A DNA stretch of 64,000 bases. Origin: an uncultured Thermomicrobiales bacterium (GTDB lineage Bacteria; Chloroflexota; Chloroflexia; Thermomicrobiales; UBA6265). The stretch spans positions 1,035 through 65,034 of the forward strand of contig CAXTHM010000013.1 in assembly GCA_964244115.1 (NCBI GenBank), written 5' to 3'. The notes below the pieces were generated by a model, which did not search any database, was not told the origin of the DNA, and saw nothing but the letters and a program-made list of their open reading frames with translations. A program made the position numbers and the translations under genes. Shown here piece by piece: positions 6,750 to 61,938 of the stretch (the stretch's first letter is position 1; each line of letters begins with the position of its first letter).

Positions 6750-6981
6750 CGGGGCAAGGATAGCCGACGCGGTCGGAGCGGCAGGGACGGATCGTGCCCG
6801 GCTGGTGCGCCAGCCCGATCATGCGATGCGCCCAGTATCGCTAACGCACCACGCGGACACCCGGTGTCACTCACTATTGAAGACGAGGTCAAACGACGGA
6901 CGCGAAGGCGCCTACTTGGGCCCCGGCATCGTCATATCCCGTCGGCGATACTGTCCGGGTGCCTGCCTTTCGCCGGGACCG

Positions 6982-51016: not shown

Positions 51017-51964
51017 ATGGAATCCGCGACGAGCCCCCTGGATCGGACCCGCGCCTTCCTCCGCGATCACCTGCGGATGCCGGGCGCCGACGCCCACGAC
51101 CTGCCCGACTCACCCCACCGGTTCGTGGACGGCGGCCAGTACCGCGTCGAGATCCCGTCCGTGGAGGGTCCGGCCTGTGTCCGGGCGGTCTATGAGACGG
51201 CGGACGCGCTCGGGGTGCCGATCCATCGCGTCAGCCAGGGCAGTGGAGTCATGCTGCTCACGGATGACGAACTCGACGAGATCGCCGCCCTCGCCCGCCA
51301 GCGGGGGATCGAGGTCAGCCTGTTCGTCGGCCCCCGGGCGGGCTGGGACACCGGCGCCATGAGCCAGGCTCCGGCCGGGCGGGTCGTCGCCCCGAAGATC
51401 CGGGGCATGGACCAGCTCGTCCATGCCGTCGAGGATGTCCGGCGGGCCTGCGAGCACGGGATCACCAGCGTCCTGATCACGGACGAGGGGCTACTCTGGG
51501 TGCTGGACGCGATGAAGCGGGCCGGTGAGCTGCCCGCCGAACTGATCCTCAAGGGGTCGGTCATGATGGCGGCCAGCAACCCCGTCTCCATCCGGCTGCT
51601 GGCGGACAACGGCATGACGACGTTCAACGTCCCGACCGACCTGTCGCTGGCCCACCTCGCCGCCATCCGGCAAGCGACGGCGATCCCGCTCGACATCTAC
51701 ATCGAAGCGCCGGATGACATCGGCGGTTTCATCCGGCACTACGAGATCGCCGAGATCATCCGCGTCGCGGCTCCGGTCTATGTCAAGTTCGGGCTGCGGA
51801 ACGCGCCGAACATCTATCCGTCCGGCACCCATCTGGAGGCGACGGCGGTCGCGCTCACCCGGGAGCGCGTCCGGCGGGCGAAGCTCGGGCTCGACCTGTT
51901 GCATCGGCTCGACCCCGACGCCGTCATATCTCCACTCCCCACCCGGAGCGAGGCGGTCACGTAG
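51017..51964 (+). CDS. Conserved hypothetical protein of unassigned function
   Basis: 315-aa ORF with GGAGGA RBS and good GC3 bias. No catalytic motif recognised with confidence. Confidence 0.6.
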   Translation: MESATSPLDRTRAFLRDHLRMPGADAHDLPDSPHRFVDGGQYRVEIPSVEGPACVRAVYETADALGVPIHRVSQGSGVMLLTDDELDEIAALARQRGIEVSLFVGPRAGWDTGAMSQAPAGRVVAPKIRGMDQLVHAVEDVRRACEHGITSVLITDEGLLWVLDAMKRAGELPAELILKGSVMMAASNPVSIRLLADNGMTTFNVPTDLSLAHLAAIRQATAIPLDIYIEAPDDIGGFIRHYEIAEIIRVAAPVYVKFGLRNAPNIYPSGTHLEATAVALTRERVRRAKLGLDLLHRLDPDAVISPLPTRSEAVT

Positions 51965-52111
51965 GACGGAGGTGGAGACCTCCGGCTGCTAGCATTGCCT
52001 CAGGGCAAGGCGGATACTGGCCGAATGCCGTTGCCCGGTGACGGCGACCGGCCAGTGCCACCCGGTCGCCGGGTCAGTCACCGTCCCGCCGATTCAGCCA
52101 GAGGGTCGCCT

Positions 52112-53071
52112 GTGCAGCTGTCCGAACTCCCCGCCGACACGCTTGCCTTCGTCTTTCCCGGTCAGGGCAGCCAGCATCCCGGCATGGGTCAGGCCGTCCA
52201 CGACGCCTCGCCGGCGGCCCGGGCCGTCTTCGCCGAGGCCGACCGTATCCTCGACCGGCCGCTGACCGAGCTCTGCCTGACCGCGCCCGCCGACGTCCTC
52301 GAAGACACGGCCACGGCCCAACCGGCCATCCTCACCGTCAGCGTCGCGATCCTGGCGGCGATCCGGGAGCGCACGGAGACAGACGGCACGACCGTGACAC
52401 CGCGGGTGGTCGCCGGACACTCGCTCGGGGAGTTCACGGCGATGGTAGCCGCGGGCGTCCTGGACTTTCCCACCGCCCTCCGGCTCGTCCAAGAACGTGG
52501 CACGCTGATGCGGCAGGCCGGCATCGAGCGGCCCGGGGGGATGGCCGCGGTCATCGGGCTGGACGACGACACCCTCGACGCGATCTGCCGGACGGCCTCG
52601 GAGCTCGGCATCGTCGGGGTCGCCAACGCGAACTGCCCGGGGCAGGTCGTGATCAGCGGCGAGTTGCCGGCCCTGGCGCGGGCGATGGGCCTCGCGAAGG
52701 AGGCGGGCGCCAAGCGGGTCCTCCGCCTTCCGGTCAGCATCGCGTCACACTCGCCGCTCATGAGCGCCGTCGCGGCCCGGATGGGCGAACTCGTCGCGCG
52801 GGTCGCCCTGCGCATGCCGGCCATGCCGATCGTCGCCAACGCCTCCGGGCAGCCGATCGTCACGATCGACGCGATCAGGACCGAGCTGAGGACGCAGGTC
52901 GAGCAGCCGGTCAACTGGACGACGTCCGTCCGGGAGATGATCGCCAGCGGAGCGACGACCTTCGTTGAGATCGGCCCCGGGCAGGTCCTGGGGGGCCTGA
53001 TCCGGCGGATCGACCGCAACGTCACGGTCGTGACGGGCCAGGATCTGCTCACCGGCCAGACGACCGACTGA
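52112..53071 (+). CDS. fabD: Malonyl-CoA:ACP transacylase
   Basis: FVFPGQGSQ and GHSLGEF motifs. GTG at 52112 preceded by GAGGG. Confidence 0.9.
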   Translation: MQLSELPADTLAFVFPGQGSQHPGMGQAVHDASPAARAVFAEADRILDRPLTELCLTAPADVLEDTATAQPAILTVSVAILAAIRERTETDGTTVTPRVVAGHSLGEFTAMVAAGVLDFPTALRLVQERGTLMRQAGIERPGGMAAVIGLDDDTLDAICRTASELGIVGVANANCPGQVVISGELPALARAMGLAKEAGAKRVLRLPVSIASHSPLMSAVAARMGELVARVALRMPAMPIVANASGQPIVTIDAIRTELRTQVEQPVNWTTSVREMIASGATTFVEIGPGQVLGGLIRRIDRNVTVVTGQDLLTGQTTD

Positions 53072-53282
53072 CGGTTCACCCACGGGAGCGGGGCGGTGGC
53101 GGTGCTACCCTTCGTTTCGTACACTGTCAGCTTGACTTCTCCGGAGTCTCCGGCCGATGGGTCAGGACGAGTCCGGGTCAAGTGAGTGCCCGACCGGACC
53201 GGTCAACGATGGGCGCTGTCCCGAAACCTCCCGACAAGCACATGGATTCTCCCGAGTCGAGACGTACGGAAGGGTGTAAACC

Positions 53283-54524
53283 GTGACGCGGCGAGTCGTT
53301 GTAACAGGAGTGGGCGCGGTCTCCCCGCTCGGGATCGGGGCGGAGACGCTCTGGCGAGAATTGCTGGCCGGTCATTCGGGGATCCGGACGATCCAGAACT
53401 TCGACGCGTCCGAACTGGAAGTCAAGATCGCCGGCGAGGTCCCCGGGTTCGTTCCGAAGGACCACATGGATGCGAAGCTGGCCAAGCGTATGGGGCGCTT
53501 CGCCCAGTTCGCGGTCGCCGCGTCGCGCGAGGCACTCGAGAGCGCCGGCCTGACGATCACCGATGACAACCGGGAGCGCGTCGGCATCGTCCTGAACACC
53601 GGCGGCGGTGGCGTGCCACTCATCGAGGAGGAGACCCGCAACTCCCTGGCGAAGGGCCGGCGTGGCGTCGGTCCCTTCCTGATCCCCATGTTCTCGCCGA
53701 ACATGGCCAGTAGCCAGGTCGGCATCAGCTTTGGCATCAAGGGTCCGACGACGACGTCGGTCGCTGCCTGCGCCGCCGGCACCCAGGCGTTCGTCGACGC
53801 CGTCCATACTCTCGAGCGTGGAGACGCCGACGTGCTCCTGACCGGCGGGACCGAGGCCGCGCTCTCGGCGGTCGCGATCACATCGCTGGCCCACATGGGA
53901 GCCCTAAGCCGCTGGGACGGCGACCCCAACGCCGCGAGCCGGCCGTTCGATGCCGAGCGCAACGGCTTCGTCTTCTCCGAGGGCGCAGTCGTGATGGTGC
54001 TCGAGACGGAGGAGCATGCCCTGGCTCGCGGCGCGACGCCGATCGCGATCGCATCCGGCGGTGCCTACACCGCCGATGCGTTCCATATGACCGCGCCAGA
54101 CCCGAGCGGCGAAAGCGCGGCCCGGGCGATGGCGGGGGCCGTCCGGCGCGCCGGGCTCGAGATGAACCAGATCGACTACATCGCCGCCCACGCGACTGCG
54201 ACGCAAATCGGTGACGCGGCCGAGACCAAGGCGATCCGGAAGGCGTTCGGCGCCCACGCCGACGCCCTGGCGATCTCCGCCAACAAGTCCATGATCGGCC
54301 ACCTCCTCGGGGCGGCCGGCGCCGTCTCCGCGATGGCCTGCGTCTTCGCGATCCGCGACGGCCGGATCCCCCCGACGATCAACCTCGAGACGCCGGACCC
54401 GATGTGCGACCTGGACTACACGCCCAACGTGATGCGCGAGTTGCCCGTCCGGGCGGCACTCGCCAACGGCTTCGGCTTCGGCGGCCAGAATGCCTGCGCC
54501 GTCTTCCGCGCCTACGACCGCTGA
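53283..54524 (+). CDS. fabF: Beta-ketoacyl-ACP synthase II
   Basis: RVVVTGVGAVSPLG, AACAAGTQA (Cys), HATATQIGD and GHLLGAAG. Confidence 0.9.
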   Translation: MTRRVVVTGVGAVSPLGIGAETLWRELLAGHSGIRTIQNFDASELEVKIAGEVPGFVPKDHMDAKLAKRMGRFAQFAVAASREALESAGLTITDDNRERVGIVLNTGGGGVPLIEEETRNSLAKGRRGVGPFLIPMFSPNMASSQVGISFGIKGPTTTSVAACAAGTQAFVDAVHTLERGDADVLLTGGTEAALSAVAITSLAHMGALSRWDGDPNAASRPFDAERNGFVFSEGAVVMVLETEEHALARGATPIAIASGGAYTADAFHMTAPDPSGESAARAMAGAVRRAGLEMNQIDYIAAHATATQIGDAAETKAIRKAFGAHADALAISANKSMIGHLLGAAGAVSAMACVFAIRDGRIPPTINLETPDPMCDLDYTPNVMRELPVRAALANGFGFGGQNACAVFRAYDR

Positions 54525-54564
54525 TGGGTCGGCCCACTCCACGTCCCGCCCGTCGAATCCGACC

Positions 54565-54602
54565 CTGACGACGGGCTCCCCAGCCGGGGAGCCCGTCGTC
54601 AG
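54565..54602 (+). terminator. Perfect 17-bp stem hairpin after fabF (no U-tract)
   Basis: CTGACGACGGGCTCCCC-AGCC-GGGGAGCCCGTCGTCAG. Confidence 0.55.
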
Positions 54603-54711
54603 ACCATCGGTATCGCCCGTGACACGCACGCGACGACGCGCACGGATTGCGCGGGTTGCTATCATCGTGGGACGCAGCGCGCCCGACCCCCCGCGGTGCC
54701 CGGAGGCAACG

Positions 54712-55392
54712 ATGACTCAGCGAGACGATCCCTCTGACGACGTGGATACGACCGGCGAGGACCCGAAAGGCTTCGCCCTGCACCGACGCCTGCTGGAGCG
54801 GGACCCCGTGGCCCGACGCCAGTTCTGGAATCGCTATTTCGACGCGCTCGCTCACTATGCGACCAGCCGGATCTTCGACACCGTCAGCCGTGAGGATGCG
54901 GGCCGCACCCTCTCCATGCACGTCATCGAGGCCATGATCGACCGCCCGGAGCGATTCGATCCGACCCGCGGCAAGAGCCTCTACGGCTATCTGATGATGG
55001 ACCTCAAGGGCGACATCGCGAACTACCTCGCCAAGCTCACGCGGGAGCCGCGGCCGATCCGGCTGGACGCACCGATCGGTGGTGACGGCGACGATGTCGG
55101 AAACCAGGACCTGGGTGGGAACCTTCCTTCGGGCGAACCTGGCCCCCAGGAGATCGCCGAATCCGCCGAGAGCCAGGCCCGGGTCGACGCGATCCGGAGA
55201 CGGGTCGTCGAGACGGACGAGGAGGGCATCGTCTTCGACCTGCAGTACGTCGCGGGGGAACGCGCGACCGACGCCTTCGCCACCGCCCTGGGGCTCACCG
55301 GGGTGCCCTCGGGCGAGCAGGCCCTGGTCGTCCAGAAACTGAAGGATCGACTGGCGAAACGACTTCGCCGGATGCGAGAGGACGAACGATGA
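54712..55392 (+). CDS. Sigma-70 family (ECF-like) protein
   Basis: Region 2-like RFDPTRGKSLYGYLMMDLKGDIANYL. Region 4-like IVFDLQYVAGERATDAFATALGLT...LKDRLAKRLRR. GGAGG RBS. The stop overlaps the next ATG (ATGA). Confidence 0.6.
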   Translation: MTQRDDPSDDVDTTGEDPKGFALHRRLLERDPVARRQFWNRYFDALAHYATSRIFDTVSREDAGRTLSMHVIEAMIDRPERFDPTRGKSLYGYLMMDLKGDIANYLAKLTREPRPIRLDAPIGGDGDDVGNQDLGGNLPSGEPGPQEIAESAESQARVDAIRRRVVETDEEGIVFDLQYVAGERATDAFATALGLTGVPSGEQALVVQKLKDRLAKRLRRMREDER

Positions 55393-55874
55393 ACGAGGAC
55401 GCGAACAACGTCGCGACTCGACCAGACGATGACGCGGACGATGAGACGTTCAGACCGACCCCACTCACGGCGGATCAGCTCGCCTGGCTGCGGGATCGGG
55501 CGGCGATCCGGGACTCCGCCCTCGGCAGCCAGCTGCTCCGGTTCCGGGAGCAGGAAGGCTGGACGCACGAACAGCTCGCCGACCACCTCGGCCTGACGCC
55601 CGAGGGGCTTGATCGGCTCAGTCTCTCCGGCCGGCCGCGCAAGGACCGGTTCGCCGCCGATGTCCGGGCCATCGCCGCCGACAGTGGCGTCCCCGACCTA
55701 CAACTGATGCAGCTCCTCCGGGCGGTCGAGAGCCGGGACGCCTTCGTCGGCTCCCAGGCGGCCCGACGGATCGTCGCGGCCGCCCGTGACCACGACGACC
55801 AGACACCATCGCCCGCCGAGCAGCGCCTCCGCGAGGCGAGCGAACCGGAGCAGTCCGAAGACGATCACCGGTGA
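55389..55874 (+). CDS. XRE-family helix-turn-helix protein
   Basis: LLRFREQEGWTHEQLADHLGLTPEGLDRLSLSGRP fits the HTH_3 pattern. Coupled to both neighbours by 4-nt overlaps. Confidence 0.6.
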   Translation: MNEDANNVATRPDDDADDETFRPTPLTADQLAWLRDRAAIRDSALGSQLLRFREQEGWTHEQLADHLGLTPEGLDRLSLSGRPRKDRFAADVRAIAADSGVPDLQLMQLLRAVESRDAFVGSQAARRIVAAARDHDDQTPSPAEQRLREASEPEQSEDDHR

Positions 55875-56590
55875 CCCGAGCGGAACTGGTCGGTGTCGCC
55901 GAGCGATTCTGGTCGCGGTCCGGCATGGAACCGCCCGAGCCGCGCTCGGTCCGGATCGCCATCTCCTGGGTCCACTCCGTCCGCGTCGAGACCCAGCCGG
56001 CGCTGTCGATCGCGACGATCCAGTCCTGGATGGCCGGGCAGGGGTTCACCGTCCCGATCGACGACCCGAACCGGCGGCTGCGCGGCTGCGCGGTCGCCTC
56101 GGCTGGTTGCGGCCTGATCTTCGTCGACGCCAGCGACCCGGCCGATGAGCGCGAGTTCACGGTCGCCCATGAGGTCGCCCACCTCCTCCTCGACTACTAC
56201 GGTCCCCGCGACCACGCGACGGACCTGATCGGTGAGGGTGCCCACGAGGTCTTCGATGGCGCCCGTGACGCGTCGTACTCCGAGCGACTCGCCGCCGCCC
56301 TGCACGGGGAAGCCCTCCAGCCCTTCGTCCACCTCCTCGCCCGCGATGCCAACTTCGTCGCCTCCGCCGCGGTCCTGGCGCGTGAGGCCCTCGCCGACGA
56401 ACTCGCCTGCGAACTCCTCGCCCCGCTGGCGGCCGTCCGCTCCGCCCTCCCGCCCTCCTGGGACCAGGCCGACGCGACCGCCATGCTGGTCAGCCGGTTC
56501 CGCTTGCCCGAGGGCGCCGCCCGGGACTACGCCCGGCGGCTGGCTCACCGCTTCCAGCCCACCCCGACCTTCGTCGACTGGCTTGGCTGA
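55871..56590 (+). CDS. ImmA/IrrE-family zinc metallopeptidase (M78)
   Basis: HEXXH in FTVAHEVAHLLLDY. The downstream EALADELACELLAP matches the family E..A..FA..LL.P block. Confidence 0.75.
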   Translation: MTRAELVGVAERFWSRSGMEPPEPRSVRIAISWVHSVRVETQPALSIATIQSWMAGQGFTVPIDDPNRRLRGCAVASAGCGLIFVDASDPADEREFTVAHEVAHLLLDYYGPRDHATDLIGEGAHEVFDGARDASYSERLAAALHGEALQPFVHLLARDANFVASAAVLAREALADELACELLAPLAAVRSALPPSWDQADATAMLVSRFRLPEGAARDYARRLAHRFQPTPTFVDWLG

Positions 56591-56692
56591 GGCCCTTCAT
56601 CGCCCGGCGACACGGTCTGGTTCCCGTCCCGGCTGGCCGTGCGGTACGCTGACCGGTACGCGAAGGTCCCGACCGTATGACGAAGGCGATGC

Positions 56693-57910
56693 ATGTCGAT
56701 CTCTGGACAGGACTCCGACGGCGCGATCGGCCCCGACGACGGGCTCGACGGTCCGATGGTCGACAACGAGCTGATCGACGACATCGCCTTCCAGCGTGCC
56801 TTCAATGAGCCGCTCGCCCAGACGCTCGACCTGGCGACCTGGCCCCGTGGCGGCGACATGATCGCCCTCTACCATCAACTCGAGCGCGAGATCGTCTCGG
56901 CGGCGCGGGATGAGGAGTCCCACCTCGACGAGATCCGGCGAACCGTCCTGCCGCACCTGAGCCAGCGCCCCAACCGGCCCGAGCAGACCGGTGTCTATCA
57001 CCTGACCCTGGATGATCTCCGCCGGGCGCACCGATCGATCCTGTTCAACGGCGGCGTCGAGGCCGCCCGCGGCACCGTCGCCGCCCACGACACGCTCGCC
57101 CTGACCGTGACCCAGCTCGGCGTCAGCCTCGTCAACTACCAGGGCGACCGCGGGACCTGGGGACACCGCCTGTTCCGGCGTGACCTGCGCTTTTCGGCCG
57201 GGGAGGTCGAGGACCTCGCGCTCCGCGTGATCCGGCAGCGGCAGGCCGGCGCCGCCGAGGACAGCGTCGCCGAGCGCCGGCTGACCCAGCTCGCCAGGCG
57301 GGGAATCCTGATGTACGCCGAGCGGTCCGCCCTGACCGACCAGGCGACGGCCCCCTGGCGCATGGGCTCCGGCACCCCGATCCCGTTCGAACTGGTGACC
57401 GGTGGCGGGAGCATGGAACTGGCGCTGCGGAGCGTCGACCTGCTCGACCGGCTCATCAATGGCCACAGGCGGTTCGTCTTCGTCTCGCCCGACACGCGCG
57501 AGCGCGGACTGATGACGATCGGCCACGCCCTCAAGCCGCTGGAATACGCCATCGTCGACGACGGCCTGCCCCGGCTCCGCTCGCTGGTCGATCGCGCCAA
57601 CTACACCCGGCGCGAACGCGATCGCATCGAGACCTTCATCGCGGAGACCGGCCCGGTCCTGCGTCTTGGGGTCTACCGGGCTTCCGAGATCGGTCCGCCG
57701 CGGCTGTTCTACGGGCATCAGGACCACATCCATGAGGCGGCGCTGGTCGCGATCGCCGATAGTGTCCTGCATGAGCACCGGGCCTTCCCGATGTTGCTGG
57801 ACCTGGCCGAACAGGTCTGCCGCGGGATGTTCCCCGCCAGTGAGCTGGCCGAGACGACCCGACTGGCCTACCTCGATGCCGGAGCGCCCCCGCGCTACGG
57901 GCTCGACTGA
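56693..57910 (+). CDS. Hypothetical protein, NurA-like nuclease candidate (partner of the HerA-like ATPase)
   Basis: 405 aa with GAAGG RBS. The stop lies 11 nt before the HerA-like start. Weak resemblance to NurA blocks (VAAHDTLALT...QLGVSLVNY and C-terminal AFPMLLDLAEQV). The assignment rests mainly on gene context. Confidence 0.4.
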   Translation: MSISGQDSDGAIGPDDGLDGPMVDNELIDDIAFQRAFNEPLAQTLDLATWPRGGDMIALYHQLEREIVSAARDEESHLDEIRRTVLPHLSQRPNRPEQTGVYHLTLDDLRRAHRSILFNGGVEAARGTVAAHDTLALTVTQLGVSLVNYQGDRGTWGHRLFRRDLRFSAGEVEDLALRVIRQRQAGAAEDSVAERRLTQLARRGILMYAERSALTDQATAPWRMGSGTPIPFELVTGGGSMELALRSVDLLDRLINGHRRFVFVSPDTRERGLMTIGHALKPLEYAIVDDGLPRLRSLVDRANYTRRERDRIETFIAETGPVLRLGVYRASEIGPPRLFYGHQDHIHEAALVAIADSVLHEHRAFPMLLDLAEQVCRGMFPASELAETTRLAYLDAGAPPRYGLD

Positions 57911-57921
57911 GGACGAGGACG

Positions 57922-60030
57922 ATGGTGCGTAGCTGGTTCAACTCCCCGAAGGACAAGTCGCAGGCGAAGGACGAAGAGGCGGAAGCGCCCTCGTTCTGGC
58001 CGCCCCTCAAGGCCGACCTGCCCGAGGCGCCCGCGCCCGCGCTCTGGCCCCCGCCGGCCGCACCGGCCGATTCCACCGACGACATCGCGTCCGAAGTCGT
58101 CGCCGGGACCGATCCGGCGCCAGCTGCCACCCCGGTCAAACCCGATCCGGCGGTTGCGTGGTCCGAGCCCGTGTCAGTGTCTCCGGCACCTGCTGTTCCG
58201 TCATTCGCCCCGGAATTGCCGGTGGACGAGTGGAGCAGCACCCCGACCCCCAGCGAGACCGCGGCGCGACTCGAACAGACCGGCCTCTCGAACAGCCTCG
58301 ATCCCTGGATTCCCGACACGGTCAACGGCGTGGTCGGGCACACGATGTACGACCTGCCCAACAGCGAGGACGGGACGATCACCGTCCTGCTGCCCCGCGA
58401 GCACATCGCCGCGACGCCGAGCCAGGCCCTCGTCCGGATCGCCAGCGGCGACCGGCGCACCTACCTCGGCATCGTCGTGGCCGGGCCGTTCGCCGAGCCG
58501 GACGGGCTCCGGGCCGACGCCAACCTGATCGTCACGACCAGCGTCCGCAGCCAGCCGTTCCAGCCCCAGTTCCACGGCCGGATCAAGGTCGAACTGCTCG
58601 GCGAGGAGATCAACCGCGTCATCCAGGCGCCCCGGTTCCGGCCGCTGCCCGGAAGCCCCGTCACCGTCCTCGACGACGAGGAGACGACCCGCGTCCTGCA
58701 GGTCTCGGGCGACCTCCGCCTCGGGCGGGCGGTCGGCCACGACGATGTCCCGGTCGGCCTGCCGTCGCGGAGCAAGAACATCCTGCCCCGGCACCTCGGC
58801 ATCGTCGGCACGACCGGCGGCGGCAAGTCGACCACCGTCGCCGGGCTGCTGGCGGAGGGTCAGCGGGCCGGCCTCGCCATCGTGCTGCTGGATGTCGAGG
58901 GCGAGTACACCCACGTCCATGAGCCGACGAGCGACCCGACGATGGTCCGGCTCCTCGCCCACGATGGCCGTGAGCCGGCTGGCATCCCCGGCACCCACCT
59001 CTATCGCCTGGTCGGGCGAGACACGACCAATGAGGCCCATCCGAACTCCCACGAGTTCAGCCTCCGGTTCAGCGATCTCTCGCCCTACACCGTCGCCGAG
59101 ATCCTCGATCTGAACGAGGTCCAGCAGGAGCGCTACCTGCAGGCGTACGATGTCGCCAAGTCGCTCGCCGCCGAGGGGAGACTCCGCGGCGGCACCCCGA
59201 ACGTCGACATCGCCGAGCTGGACGACTTCGAGCAGGGCTGCCCCGGCGTCACCCTCGCCATCATGCGGAGCCTGATCGGCGCGTTCATCGGCGTGGCGGA
59301 CAAGGGCGAGCCCACGATCACCGAGCCGGCCATCGCGGACCAGTCCGCCACGATCCTGGCCAGGATCCGGGACCGCAAGCCTTCCAGCCCGGTGAGCTGG
59401 AAGGCTGTCCAGAGCCGGCTGGGCCGACTGCAACGCCTCCGGGTCTTCGACACCGCCCGGGGGCAGGCCGTGCCGCTGGACCTCGACACGCTGCTGGCGC
59501 CGGGCCGGGTCAACATCTTCGACCTCTCCGACATCGACGGGACCGACCTGCGCAACATCGTCATCGCGGACCTGCTGCGCGGCCTCCAGACCGCCCAGGA
59601 GCGTCGCTACGCGGCCTACGAGCGCGCTGACAAGGCCGACGGGCCGCCGCGGACCCTGGTCATCATCGAGGAGGCCCACGAGTTCCTGGCCCGGAACCGG
59701 GTCTCGAGCATGCCGGTCCTGTTCGCCCAGGTCGAGCGGATCGCCAAGCGGGGCCGGAAGCGCTGGCTCGGGCTTGCCTTCGTCACGCAGTTGCCGCAGC
59801 ATCTCGCTCCGCAGGTCTCGGCCCTGATCAACAACTGGGTGATCCACAAGGTCGCCGACCCGGCCGCGATCAGCGACCTGCGTCAGTCCGTCAGCGGCGT
59901 CGATGACAGCCTCTGGCAGACCGTCCGTGGCCTCGCGCCCGGTCAGGCCGTGGTCGCCTGCGGCCACATGACCCGCCCCGTCCTGACCGCGATCCACCCG
60001 GCCGCCGCCCAGCTCCGGATGGTGGACTAG
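57922..60030 (+). CDS. HerA/FtsK-like hexameric ATPase (DUF87-type) with a HAS-barrel and a Pro-rich N-terminal extension
   Basis: Walker A GIVGTTGGGKST and Walker B TLVIIEEAHEFL. Barrel-like region VGHTMYDLP...ALVRIAS...YLGIVVAG. The N-terminal approximately 125 aa are P/A-rich. Confidence 0.8.
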   Translation: MVRSWFNSPKDKSQAKDEEAEAPSFWPPLKADLPEAPAPALWPPPAAPADSTDDIASEVVAGTDPAPAATPVKPDPAVAWSEPVSVSPAPAVPSFAPELPVDEWSSTPTPSETAARLEQTGLSNSLDPWIPDTVNGVVGHTMYDLPNSEDGTITVLLPREHIAATPSQALVRIASGDRRTYLGIVVAGPFAEPDGLRADANLIVTTSVRSQPFQPQFHGRIKVELLGEEINRVIQAPRFRPLPGSPVTVLDDEETTRVLQVSGDLRLGRAVGHDDVPVGLPSRSKNILPRHLGIVGTTGGGKSTTVAGLLAEGQRAGLAIVLLDVEGEYTHVHEPTSDPTMVRLLAHDGREPAGIPGTHLYRLVGRDTTNEAHPNSHEFSLRFSDLSPYTVAEILDLNEVQQERYLQAYDVAKSLAAEGRLRGGTPNVDIAELDDFEQGCPGVTLAIMRSLIGAFIGVADKGEPTITEPAIADQSATILARIRDRKPSSPVSWKAVQSRLGRLQRLRVFDTARGQAVPLDLDTLLAPGRVNIFDLSDIDGTDLRNIVIADLLRGLQTAQERRYAAYERADKADGPPRTLVIIEEAHEFLARNRVSSMPVLFAQVERIAKRGRKRWLGLAFVTQLPQHLAPQVSALINNWVIHKVADPAAISDLRQSVSGVDDSLWQTVRGLAPGQAVVACGHMTRPVLTAIHPAAAQLRMVD

Positions 60031-60243
60031 GCGCAGCGAGTTCGAAGCGATCGGGTGGACCGTAGGCGACGGTGCGGCCCTGAGGGGACCGGCTGAACGA
60101 CATCGGTGGCGCTCATGGCTGGCCGTTGGGTGGCGTGACGTCACAACGACAATGGTGTCGCAACGAGGCGCAGAGGTCAGTTTGGTTGAGCCGGTCGCTG
60201 GCGGCAGGCTCCAGGCGAAGTCGTCGAACTGCATGGGCGGGTG

Positions 60244-60353
60244 TTGCTCCCCGCTCCGGGCACCGGTGAGCCGTAGCGCGGCGAGAGCCGCCTGTAGCGG
60301 GTGACCGAACAGGTGAGCCGAAGAGGGGCTAGGGGAGCGGTCTGCTCCGCCAC
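60244..60353 (-). repeat. Intergenic structured repeat, X-type, copy 5 (reverse orientation)
   Basis: TTGCTCCCCGCTCCGGGCACC...GGGGAGCGGTCTGCTCCGCCAC is the reverse complement of blocks at 44700-44820. Confidence 0.6.
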
Positions 60354-60673
60354 AATGCAGCTGCAATCACGACCACTCCCACCGGTTGCCGGTGAGACAG
60401 TCCCGCGAACTCGCGATGGTCATGGGTCGTTCGTCGATACCAGGAGGGACCTCTGGATCGGCAAACGGCATTGCTGCCGTTACCGTCATGCTGTCACCCT
60501 GACTACGTTGTCTACCCCGAATGGAGTCGAGACCGGCCGGCGACCGGTGCGGTCGGTGCCCCGTCACAACGCACATGCCGTCAGCGCGTAGCCAGCAGGG
60601 ACCTTCACCAGCGTCCCCAGTCCCGCGACACGTCCGTACGGCGATCTGATGTCCAGCTCGAGGCCGGGATGGT

Positions 60674-61039
60674 GTGGAGAGAGATGTGAGCTATTCAGGC
60701 GCCGGCGATCCCCTCCTCCAGTCGCTTCCCGAATCGCATTCCCTGGTCCCGCGCCGCTCGACCCGGACCGACGACGATCGCCCTCCCTACTGCCCGACCT
60801 GCCATCGCCGACTCGTGATCCTGACGACGCATGTCGACCGGACCGCCAGCGCGAGCGGTCAGCGAAACCGCTACCAGCTCTGGGGCTGCCCGCGTGGCCA
60901 CGCGACGTCACGACGGGTCATGGGCAGCTTCTCCGCCGTGGAGGTCCTGCCCGACCCCCTGAGCCAGGACGACGACTATCGCCTCGGCAGCTCATCTCAG
61001 CGGGCTTCGAACGGATCGGACGACCGCCAACTGCGCTAG
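60674..61039 (+). CDS. Small zinc-ribbon-like hypothetical protein
   Basis: 121-aa ORF with CPTCH...WGCPRGH and good GC3 bias. The start is uncertain. Confidence 0.4.
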   Translation: MERDVSYSGAGDPLLQSLPESHSLVPRRSTRTDDDRPPYCPTCHRRLVILTTHVDRTASASGQRNRYQLWGCPRGHATSRRVMGSFSAVEVLPDPLSQDDDYRLGSSSQRASNGSDDRQLR

Positions 61040-61128
61040 GATGCCGGCATGTCGTCGCGGACGGGCCGCATCGACTCGAGACGCGGGCCGGGGAACACAG
61101 CGATGACCCGGCCAGGGGAGTCACCTGG

Positions 61129-61938
61129 ATGATCTTCAACACGCCGGACCGGATCAGGGCACTGACGCCGTCGAACCCGTTCGGCCGGATGCCGGACGGT
61201 CGGCCGATGGTTCCGGATGATCTCCTCGAGCGGATGAAGCTCGTGACCAACGACGAGGCCTGGGCGACCATGGAGTCCGGCCACGGCTACAGGTACCAGT
61301 TCTCGGGCGGGTGGTTGAACATGCACCCGGACCGCATCCTGGTCGGGCGCGTCGTCACGGCCCAGTTCGTCCCGATCCGGCCGGACTTCCACGATGTCGT
61401 CGCCGGGATCGGCGAGCGCTAGGGTCGCAGCGGCGGCCAGAACACCTGGGTGATCGACTCGCTCGGCCCCCACGACGTCCTCGTCGTCGACATCTTCGGC
61501 AAGATCCGCGACGGCACGGTGATCGGCGACAACCTCTCGACCGCGATCGCGTCGAAGACGAAGGCCGGCATCGTCATCAACGGCGCCGTCCGGGACTACG
61601 TCCGGATCCGCGAGCTGGAGAACTTCAACGTCTTCCACAAGGGCATGGACCCGACCCCGATCCGGGAGGTGACGCTGGCTGCGGTCAACGTCCCGATCCG
61701 GATCGACGACGTCACCGTCATGCCCGGCGACGTCGTCCTCGGGACACCGGAGGGGATCTCGTTCGTCCCGCCGCACCTTGCCCAGCAGGTCGTCGAGGAA
61801 TCCGAGAACACGCGCCAGCGGGACGTCTTCGGCAAGCTCCGCCTGCATCAGGGCACGTACACGACCGGCGAGATTGACCGGCCAGAGTGGGCCGACCACA
61901 TCGAGGCCGACTATCTGGCCTGGGTGAAGACCAGCTAA
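61129..61938 (+). pseudogene. RraA-like / HMG aldolase-family protein interrupted by one in-frame TAG (61420-61422)
   Basis: ORFs 60649..61422 and 61450..61938 share a frame and read ...DVVAGIGER*GRSGGQNTWVIDSLGPHDVLVVDIFGK...GIVINGAVRD...MPGDVVLG.... ATG at 61129 with GGGGAG upstream. Confidence 0.7.

Follow-up and report, generated by a model that had tools for sequence, protein, structure and literature searches.

HerA and NurA are known as the DNA end-resection machine of archaea and of Deinococcus-Thermus, and more recently several anti-phage systems have turned out to use HerA as their motor. The core of NurA is an eight-stranded RNase-H-like fold (PMC9960219), and the NurA literature itself names EndoV and the Argonaute PIWI domains as relatives (PMC3300031). 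Here we describe a protein of 405 amino acids (aa) that is encoded directly upstream of a HerA-type ATPase in an uncultured Thermomicrobiales bacterium (assembly GCA_964244115.1, contig CAXTHM010000013.1, positions 1,035 to 65,034); this whole stretch of 64,000 nucleotides (nt) is called the window below. The original prediction, made from the DNA sequence, had regarded the protein as a highly divergent NurA-like nuclease or as an alternative effector of HerA. As judged from predicted structures, it is very probably a NurA-fold partner of HerA. With a probability of roughly 60%, we read the window copy as a catalytically impaired NurA that is kept as a structural or regulatory cofactor of HerA (by DNA-end binding or by stimulation of the ATPase or of unwinding) and that is the output of a regulated gene cassette. 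The two genes are:

56693..57910, forward strand: gene of the putative NurA-fold protein, 405 aa, ATG start (AlphaFold2 model and Foldseek)
57922..60030, forward strand: HerA-type hexameric translocase/ATPase, 702 aa (matches in Pfam, PADLOC and the PDB)

Among the described systems, the archaeal HerA-NurA pairs (Sulfolobus 2YGK/4D2I, Pyrococcus 3TAI, Thermococcus 9X1L-P) provide both the best structural match for the 405-aa protein and the best sequence match for the ATPase. As in archaea, the two genes lie side by side, with translational coupling probable, and the family of the window protein shows a DGT where the archaeal motif I reads DGS or DGT, a Glu on helix alpha1 and a Y/F-x7-[H/D] block. 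Unlike the archaeal loci, the window locus has no Mre11/Rad50 neighbours, and its NurA-like protein has no similarity to the archaeal ones that is detectable by sequence or profile; the Asp that ends strand beta4 in archaeal NurA is a His in the family, and the window protein has neither this His nor the Asp of motif I. Also in contrast to the archaeal pairs, the family is bacterial, patchy and apparently horizontally spread, and it sits inside a cassette with genes for a sigma factor, a helix-turn-helix (HTH) protein, an M78 peptidase and often a DNA methyltransferase. With the defence systems Sir2-HerA, DUF4297-HerA and MADS (mad8) the locus shares a HerA-type ATPase paired with an effector gene, and with MADS also the tie to methylation in most loci of the family. 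Unlike in Sir2-HerA and DUF4297-HerA, the putative effector has a NurA fold without any PADLOC or Pfam match, and neither Sir2 nor DUF4297 is found beside HerA. Membership in MADS was rejected on account of the differing gene set, MADS consisting of eight genes with a kinase and a specificity subunit.

Fold of the 405-aa protein and its HerA partner

The 405-aa open reading frame (ORF) is a real gene, because it has 474 homologues at E<=1e-3 (best E=1e-253), because a profile search of 1.84 billion cluster representatives (50% identity clusters) returned 596 clusters, and because the ratio of nonsynonymous to synonymous substitution rates (dN/dS) is 0.12-0.20 among the close relatives within the window clade (0.21-0.25 for HerA). 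All homologues are unnamed or 'hypothetical', and none carries a Pfam domain. The ORF has the coordinates and the acidic N-terminus that had been described for it: the first 30 residues contain 9 D/E and no K/R, and residues 1-23 (pLDDT, the predicted local distance difference test, <50) are predicted to be disordered. The HerA ORF begins 11 nt past its end, with a GAGGA Shine-Dalgarno sequence inside the gap. Two long antisense ORFs overlap the NurA-like and HerA genes (56597..57778, 393 aa, and 58201-60366, 721 aa, both on the reverse strand); these are a chance by-product expected in DNA of 70% G+C and have no support as genes.

The window protein had no match in Pfam, NCBIfam or PADLOC, nor in the PDB by phmmer or profile search. 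Searching the Pfam NurA model (PF09376), we found no match among 59 family members and 10 divergent representatives, even at E<=10, which bears out the earlier description of the protein as highly divergent: no sequence model recognises it, and 0 of 69 members match Pfam NurA. The best 150 of the 596 clusters in the representative search all lie inside the NurA-like family and offer no bridge to canonical NurA. When the family was aligned with a haloarchaeal NurA alignment (A2) using hhalign at low stringency, the score was non-significant (E about 0.09), though the register was sensible: one colinear path places VEAcDGT on AADGS and FPmLIDLAD on GYPEiLQQAD. This silence at the sequence level is unsurprising, because haloarchaeal NurA, which matches Pfam NurA at 1e-25, likewise fails to match any NurA in the PDB by phmmer or profile. 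The haloarchaeal reference proteins are Pfam-positive genes on plasmids (L005:1022-4633, L006:1016-4789) that occur with HerA-like ATPases; at both loci an SMC/Rad50-like gene and a small ORF lie between NurA and the HerA-like ATPase. As a further reference sequence we used a canonical, Pfam-positive NurA with a HerA-like ATPase on a plasmid of M. jannaschii (L091:2972-5802).

An AlphaFold2 (AF2) model of the window protein, built on a 59-sequence alignment, reached a pLDDT of 84.5 and a predicted template modelling score (pTM) of 0.81, and was run against the PDB with Foldseek. The best nine matches were all NurA, i.e. 2ygk of Sulfolobus (E=2.8e-6, probability 1.0, template modelling (TM) score 0.45/0.56) together with, among others, 9x1l/m/n, which are cryo-EM chains from Thermococcus HerA-NurA, and 3tai/3tal/3taz from Pyrococcus; next in the ranking came EndoV, Argonaute PIWI and RNase H. 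A second, independent AF2 model was made for a relative (P0065) that is 44% identical to the window protein (pLDDT 87.9, pTM 0.86). Here the best ten matches were all archaeal NurA (2ygk E=5.5e-7, probability 1.0), followed by PIWI, EndoV and RNase H. In both AF2 models the order of strands and helices fits the RNase-H core of NurA. The bacterial NurA structures 1ZUP and 7F6D were absent from the top 50 Foldseek matches of both models.

Because both models rank archaeal NurA first, the 405-aa protein is assigned the NurA fold and not a new effector fold; the RNase-H-like fold that had been proposed thus stands, and the alternative of a novel effector family, in the sense of a new fold, was not borne out. 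One could still argue that the protein is unrelated to NurA, a new HerA-associated effector whose fold match is an artefact of a generic alpha/beta RNase-H-like topology, and the failure of every sequence and profile method to tie it to NurA as well as TM-scores of just 0.44-0.56 would agree with that. We consider this highly improbable, since NurA chains from three archaea came first in two independent models, ahead of other RNase-H-like proteins, since the Pfam-positive haloarchaeal NurA misses the PDB structures just the same, since motifs I and IV match and are correctly spaced, and since the gene partner is again HerA. Going by the models, the 405-aa protein belongs to the structural class of NurA as a very divergent member, with an RNase-H/PIWI-like fold and N- and C-terminal helical extensions. 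It has the fold, the partner and two or three of the four motifs in common with NurA. It is not filed as a regular NurA nuclease, because the family sequence model fails and two catalytic features fail in the window copy.

The identity of the ATPase is clear from sequence searches. It matches the Pfam DUF87/HerA central domain (PF01935) at E=3e-21 (76.9 bits, the cut-off being 23.2). In PADLOC it matches HerA models, at best with E=4e-23, and also the mad8 model, and it gives partial matches to NCBIfam HerA equivalogs. Its best PDB sequence matches are 4d2i from Sulfolobus (E=1e-21) and 9x1l from Thermococcus (E=2e-19), both of them partners of NurA, and in this search the NurA-partner HerAs outrank the Sir2- and DUF4297-associated HerAs of defence systems. 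The bacterial NurA-HerA pairs (Deinococcus radiodurans 7F6D, Thermotoga maritima 1ZUP, Thermus) also have a bacterial NurA beside HerA and the RNase-H-like core (PMC9960219); Deinococcus HerA is not among the sequence matches of the window HerA at E<=1e-3. The NurA-like/HerA pair of the window looks closer to the archaeal than to the bacterial type. Within the HerA gene we located the following features:

58807-58833, forward strand: Walker A motif GTTGGGKST, HerA residues 296-304 (from the sequence)
59656-59679, forward strand: Walker B motif LVIIEEAH, HerA residues 579-586 (from the sequence)
57922-58320, forward strand: Pro/Ala/Ser-rich low-complexity N-terminal extension, HerA residues 1-130 (25 P, 22 A, 15 S), preceding the HAS-barrel region

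Most HerA orthologues are about 610-630 aa long and do without much of this extension; only in the closest relatives (L007, L008) is the length similar.

Putative active-site positions in the family and in the window copy

The catalytic residues of NurA include an Asp on strand beta1 (Sulfolobus (Sso) D58, Pyrococcus (Pfu) D51) and a Glu on helix alpha1 (Sso E116, Pfu E105), together with a further active-site Asp that ends beta4 (Sso D133, Pfu D126) and a C-terminal block with a His or an acidic residue eight positions past a conserved Tyr (Pfu H411, Thermotoga maritima (Tm) E280; Sso Y298) (PMC3326311, PMC3300031). The Asp of motif I coordinates both metals in Pfu NurA (PMC3300031), and its mutation abolishes nuclease activity (PMC3300031, PMC3326311). 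From alignments of Methanocaldococcus, Thermococcus and Pyrococcus NurA we read the canonical motifs as aVDGS, eTLE, lmDGTL and gYxxPLxxAH. On the basis of motif spacing, secondary structure, the non-significant hhalign path and covariation, residues 126, 210, 226 and 373 of the window protein would be the equivalents of the NurA residues D, E, D and H:

57068..57070, forward strand: codon CGC of R126, putative NurA motif-I position (family VEAcDGT, window VEAARGT; beta1 spans residues 122-133)
57320..57322, forward strand: E210, invariant Glu in helix alpha1 ('AYAER'), putative motif-II Glu (Pfu E105, Sso E116)
57368..57370, forward strand: S226, end of beta4; His in the family ('WRMGHG'), putative site at which canonical NurA has its second catalytic Asp
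57785..57811, forward strand: FPMLLDLAE (residues 365-373), resembling the NurA C-terminal block Y-x-x-x-L-x-x-A-[H/D], with spacing identical to NurA

Column 126, which hhalign pairs with the Asp of haloarchaeal NurA AADGS, holds D in 49 of the 59 sequences and R in the window protein and its eight closest relatives. E210 is invariant (59/59) and lies in helix 192-217 of the AF2 model, 16 residues before the end of beta4; the corresponding Glu-to-Asp spacing in Sso and Tm NurA is 17. In column 226 we found H in 48 of the 50 D-clade sequences and A or S in all nine window-clade sequences, and the window protein has no Asp at or beside the end of beta4. E373 of the window takes the place of D (or H) in the family and of H411 in Pfu; an acidic residue at this last position of the block also occurs in Tm NurA, as E280 (PMC3300031). 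The eight closest relatives (60-95% identical) all share R126 with A or S at 226, and seven of them share E373, while the other conserved residues are all kept in the window clade.

The three strings singled out by the original prediction are present, i.e. GTVAAHDTLALTV at residues 127-139, QLGVSLVNYQGD at 141-152 and HEHRAFPMLLDLAEQV at 360-375. As had been suspected, HEHRAFPMLLDLAEQV resembles the C-terminal block of NurA: the spacing from F365 to E373 is that of Y-x-x-P/L-L-x-x-A-[H/D] in Pfu, Thermococcus (Tko) and Methanocaldococcus (Mj) NurA. QLGVSLVNYQGD, said to be beta-strand-like, forms beta2 and the start of beta3 in the AF2 model. The candidate catalytic Asp in GTVAAHDTLALTV (D133) has to be replaced, since motif I falls seven residues upstream, at R126; D133 itself lies at the beta1-beta2 turn, which, together with the DGT consensus seven residues upstream, led us to reject it as motif I. 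When the acidic residues were mapped across the homologues, E233, E284, D356 and D370 turned out to be invariant or nearly so, in addition to E210.

Across 182 full-length members, D126 and H226 are both kept in 133 and both lost in 33, with 16 discordant cases. Of the 178 testable columns, none covaries more strongly with column 126 than column 226 does (phi 0.75, the sequences being phylogenetically non-independent); columns 206, 360, 365, 369 and 373 are also among the top partners of column 126. Such a joint loss of D126 and H226 is what would be expected for one site that decays as a unit. Judging from the substitutions, R126 and S226 have probably destroyed the metal site of the window protein, and we lean slightly towards regarding the window copy as nuclease-impaired. 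Of the proposed divergent RNase-H-fold nuclease, the fold is supported by both Foldseek runs, whereas the nuclease activity of the window copy is doubtful (R126, S226). Despite these substitutions, the NurA-like gene of the window clade is under purifying selection, its dN/dS being no higher than that of HerA.

This selection could equally be claimed for an active NurA-type nuclease with a rearranged site, which would act with HerA in the damage-induced resection of double-strand break ends, under an IrrE/DdrO-like control, as a part of housekeeping repair. The conserved E210, E233, E284, D356, H362 and D370 (all invariant or nearly so) and the residues E123 and D133 flanking position 126 would be available for such a site. 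The cassette is chromosomal in the window clade, with conserved synteny between fabF and an RraA-like gene, both the NurA-like protein and HerA are closest to the archaeal repair pair, and in Deinococcus the DNA-repair regulons are controlled by pairs of M78 and XRE proteins (PMC12828697, PMC10904395). We nevertheless consider an active nuclease unlikely. The residue lost at motif I would be the one that binds both metals in Pfu and cannot be mutated without loss of activity (PMC3300031, PMC3326311), and E123 would, from the geometry of a beta-strand, lie on the strand face opposite to residue 126. Positions 126 and 226 are lost jointly, which looks like decay of the site rather than its remodelling, and the family is patchy (230 of ~185,000 species) and often found beside methyltransferase and defence genes, unlike core repair. 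For the reading we prefer, a non-catalytic role at HerA, there is a precedent, because the Sulfolobus NurA mutant D58A has no nuclease activity and still switches on unwinding by HerA (PMC3326311).

The cassette and its promoter-like motif

The two adjacent genes had been seen as a HerA pair. Their adjacency is confirmed; the pair actually forms the end of a conserved cassette of five to six genes, whose other parts in the window are:

54490..55392, forward strand: gene of a sigma factor resembling the extracytoplasmic function (ECF) type, first of the cassette, weak Sigma70_r2 match
55389..55874, forward strand: XRE/CapH-like HTH gene, overlapping the sigma gene by 4 nt
55871..56590, forward strand: gene of an M78 (ImmA/IrrE/CapP-like) zinc metallopeptidase with HEVAH, sharing 4 nt with the HTH gene
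56591..56692: intergenic gap that separates the M78 gene from the NurA-like gene, without TGTCG[A/C]ACTT-N13-14-GGAATA

We recovered 80 loci from a scan with one genome per species, and further contigs by exact-protein look-up. The order sigma-HTH-M78-NurA-like-HerA is colinear in essentially all of the about 80 loci, which come from many phyla, and also in the additional contigs. The NurA-like family is present in 230 of ~185,000 species genomes from more than 10 phyla (Chloroflexota, Planctomycetota, Acidobacteriota, Latescibacterota, Nitrospirota, Verrucomicrobiota, Desulfobacterota, Cyanobacteria, Actinomycetota and others). Because the family is patchy, with 42-50% identity to the window protein across phyla, its spread suggests horizontal transfer. 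A literature search returned no description of a sigma/HTH/M78/NurA-like/HerA gene set, and the cassette is apparently undescribed. In one lineage of Chloroflexia (L049:4559-6265; also L071, L054) the M78 gene is separated from the NurA-like gene by an inserted CBS-DRTGG-DHH-DHHA2 gene, and the NurA-like gene and HerA stand about 1.4 kb apart. Because of this distance, tight coupling of the NurA-like and HerA genes is not universal.

Of the sigma orthologues, 16/26 match Sigma70_r2 (best E=7.7e-9), and the window protein does so weakly; the best PDB profile matches are the ECF sigma factors RpoE and SigK, again weak (E 0.18-0.6). The first ~74 codons of the sigma-like ORF (54490-54711) are rich in Pro, Ser, Thr and Arg and have no counterpart in the orthologues. 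Since these are about 205-260 aa long, translation probably begins at the ATG near 54712 (MTQRDD...). The HTH protein matches Pfam HTH_31 (E=2.5e-5) and PADLOC capH (E=9e-4), and the profile of its orthologues weakly matches the HTH of HipB/SinR. For the peptidase we found matches to Pfam Peptidase_M78 (E=2.9e-8; 34 bits, the cut-off being 22) and PADLOC capP (E=4.9e-7). Its 36 aligned orthologues (alignment A6) conserve HExxH and, ~27 residues before it, a nearly invariant Cys (C73, 'LRGCLVA'). A 'cysteine switch loop' reportedly autoinhibits CapP (PMC13228613), and C73 might be the same device.

The pair of an XRE-type HTH protein followed by an M78 HExxH peptidase is shared with CapH/CapP, ImmR/ImmA and DdrO/IrrE, capH and capP being the best PADLOC matches. 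CapH and CapP are also known together with a sigma factor: 24 CBASS systems carry an additional factor of the sigma-70 family (10.1101/2022.04.27.489752). The described CapH/CapP genes lie upstream of, and divergent from, the operon they regulate (10.1101/2022.04.27.489752), whereas all genes of the window cassette are co-directional; the capH and capP matches are weak (E 9e-4 and 5e-7), and NurA-like/HerA is absent from the CapH/CapP-associated effectors listed in 10.1101/2022.04.27.489752. By analogy with these systems, the HTH/M78 pair may act as a cleavage switch that single-stranded DNA (ssDNA) or damage turns on.

A bipartite, non-palindromic motif, TGTCG[A/C]ACTT-N13-14-GGAATA, occurs in the gap between the M78 and NurA-like genes at 38 of the 80 loci. 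This motif, which can also be written TGTCGAACTT-N-GGAATA, precedes nurA-like and herA. At 36 loci we found a second copy inside the sigma ORF; where a copy is contained in a called ORF (34 cases), it is in frame in 33, ~345 nt past the start of the ORF, where they encode V-[E/A]-[L/H/Q]-x4-[G/R]-N. Of 97 matches in 1 Mb (both strands), 74 fall at these two fixed places (e.g. at about 6830-6870 and about 5390-5430 of L018; also in L041, L057 and L072). Both copies of a locus always share the variable base (18 A/A, 7 C/C, 0 mixed, p=2e-6), so that the constraint acts on the DNA, for which the cassette's own sigma factor is the obvious reader. The motif contains 'AAC', the -35 hallmark of ECF promoters. 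By its sequence, it looks like an ECF-type promoter, of which one copy is hidden inside the gene that codes for its own sigma factor. A relaxed search of positions 54300-56800 of the window gave no match, and the window clade has neither copy. Within 54000-60800 we detected no sigma-70 promoter and no intrinsic terminator, and an Rfam scan of the operon was also empty.

In about 50 of the 80 loci a DNA methyltransferase gene (360-420 aa, with FxGxG and SPPY) lies directly upstream of the sigma gene. The enzyme matches the PADLOC type II methyltransferase model (2e-29) and Pfam N6_N4_Mtase/UPF0020. Examples are:

L087:5886-7058: cassette methyltransferase, directly upstream of the sigma gene
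L003:3106-4194: cassette methyltransferase, directly upstream of the sigma gene
L089:5729-6985, reverse strand: cassette methyltransferase, directly upstream of the sigma gene

Several loci have defence genes beside them: a type I restriction-modification (RM) system at one, SMODS/Cap17 with a BsuBI RM system at another, or PIN and Tsp45I with a second methyltransferase. A comparable combination is known from the integrative and conjugative element (ICE) ICETh1 of Thermus thermophilus, whose tdtA operon (Tth111II, TTC1878, TdtA, N4/N6 methylase) has genes for a restriction enzyme of type IIG, a nuclease of the NurA family, the HerA/FtsK-like TdtA and an N4-N6 methylase (PMC5365140). In both cases a NurA-family gene lies directly upstream of a HerA/FtsK-like ATPase gene, with a DNA methylase in the operon. 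Going by its description, the ICETh1 operon differs from the window cassette in that it belongs to an excisable ICE that has an integrase, serves DNA donation and has no sigma/HTH/M78 genes. A DNA-export or mobilisation module like this 'transjugation' operon, in which the NurA-like gene is needed for donation (PMC5365140), would also suit the horizontal spread of the family. We hold it to be very unlikely for the window cassette: the loci inspected showed neither an integrase nor a tRNA-flanked insertion, a conjugation gene or a direct repeat around the cassette, the plasmid and phage collections contain no homologues, and no membrane or secretion features were detected in the window HerA.

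In the window lineage the cassette is reduced. The loci of the window clade (L007, L008, L011) and more distant ones (L009, L010, L013, L050, L063, L075) have no methyltransferase, and a homologue of the cassette methyltransferase was found nowhere in the 64 kb of the window. Inspection of the methyltransferase-less loci for a hidden enzyme also gave none; L049 carries the inserted CBS-DRTGG-DHH gene and L009 housekeeping neighbours. Wherever D126 is lost, the methyltransferase is absent (non-redundant table [[49,16],[0,7]], Fisher p=1.7e-4). The losses of D126 comprise the R of the window clade, N twice and K once, plus L075 with R226/A373. The neighbours of the window cassette are a peptidase U32-like gene, fabD and fabF upstream (51017-54524) and an RraA-like gene downstream (60649-61938). 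These housekeeping neighbours recur at a 61%-identical locus in a Thermomicrobiales metagenome-assembled genome (L001/L002), which indicates vertical inheritance of the reduced cassette in the window clade. The cassette of the window lineage is thus a reduced, chromosomally fixed version, without methyltransferase, without motif and with D126R/H226S/D373E.

Proposed function and its significance

For the family as a whole, we propose that DNA damage or ssDNA would activate the M78 peptidase, which, like CapP, IrrE and ImmA, would remove the HTH repressor, and that the sigma factor of the cassette would then fire the TGTCG[A/C]ACTT-N-GGAATA promoter ahead of nurA-like and herA. By analogy with archaeal HerA-NurA, the NurA-like protein should cap the ring of the HerA translocase. 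HerA would thread DNA ends into the NurA-like dimer, where they would be cut by the presumed D126/E210/H226/D373 site, while the methyltransferase would mark or protect self DNA; the whole would form a regulated restriction-like or RecBCD-like DNA-degrading defence module. In the window lineage, the substitutions D126R and H226S (two of the four presumed active-site residues) and D373E would leave the NurA-like protein with a non-catalytic contribution to HerA.

Several points weigh against this picture. The TM-scores of both models to NurA are modest, and hhalign against a Methanococcales/Archaeoglobus NurA alignment (A5) gave E=0.6, with motif IV alone in register, where the C-terminal block falls on GYP..L..AH. 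Even the 'intact' members of the family carry His, not Asp, at the end of beta4, and for that reason the chemistry of the family may differ from that of canonical NurA; moreover, R126 might be tolerated or compensated by E123, D133, E233 or D356, all of which are conserved. In a neighbour-joining tree the losses of D126 fall in methyltransferase-less lineages, but these are few independent events (~4-5), and because 15-16 methyltransferase-less loci retain D126 and H226, the link between methyltransferase and D126 is a tendency, not a rule. The defence role of the family is guilt by association: the plasmid and phage collections hold nothing homologous to the NurA-like protein, and the conserved housekeeping synteny around the window cassette would fit a role in DNA repair as well. 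On balance, we give the family slightly less than even odds of serving defence and not repair or transfer. Bolder, and rather doubtful, is the view that it represents an undescribed, horizontally mobile, six-gene restriction-like immune system, made up of the methyltransferase, the sigma factor with a co-evolving promoter, the CapH/CapP-like damage switch and the cryptic NurA-HerA motor, in which the loss of the methyltransferase, in the window lineage as in others, repeatedly turns NurA into a conserved, nuclease-dead subunit.

What is new here is a cryptic clade of NurA, an apparently undescribed cassette and, in the window, a degenerate yet conserved derivative of it. About 600 clusters of putative NurA-fold partners of HerA are left unannotated by current sequence models, as Pfam NurA misses the clade, and the case illustrates how structure can settle what a 'hypothetical protein next to HerA' is. 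With this family we have a candidate for a new, regulated defence system that degrades DNA and brings its own pair of sigma factor and promoter. The window copy would be a natural 'catalytic-site knockout' under selection and could show what NurA contributes to HerA beyond cutting. If the bolder view given above is true, NurA-HerA machines would have a second, non-nucleolytic function in bacteria.

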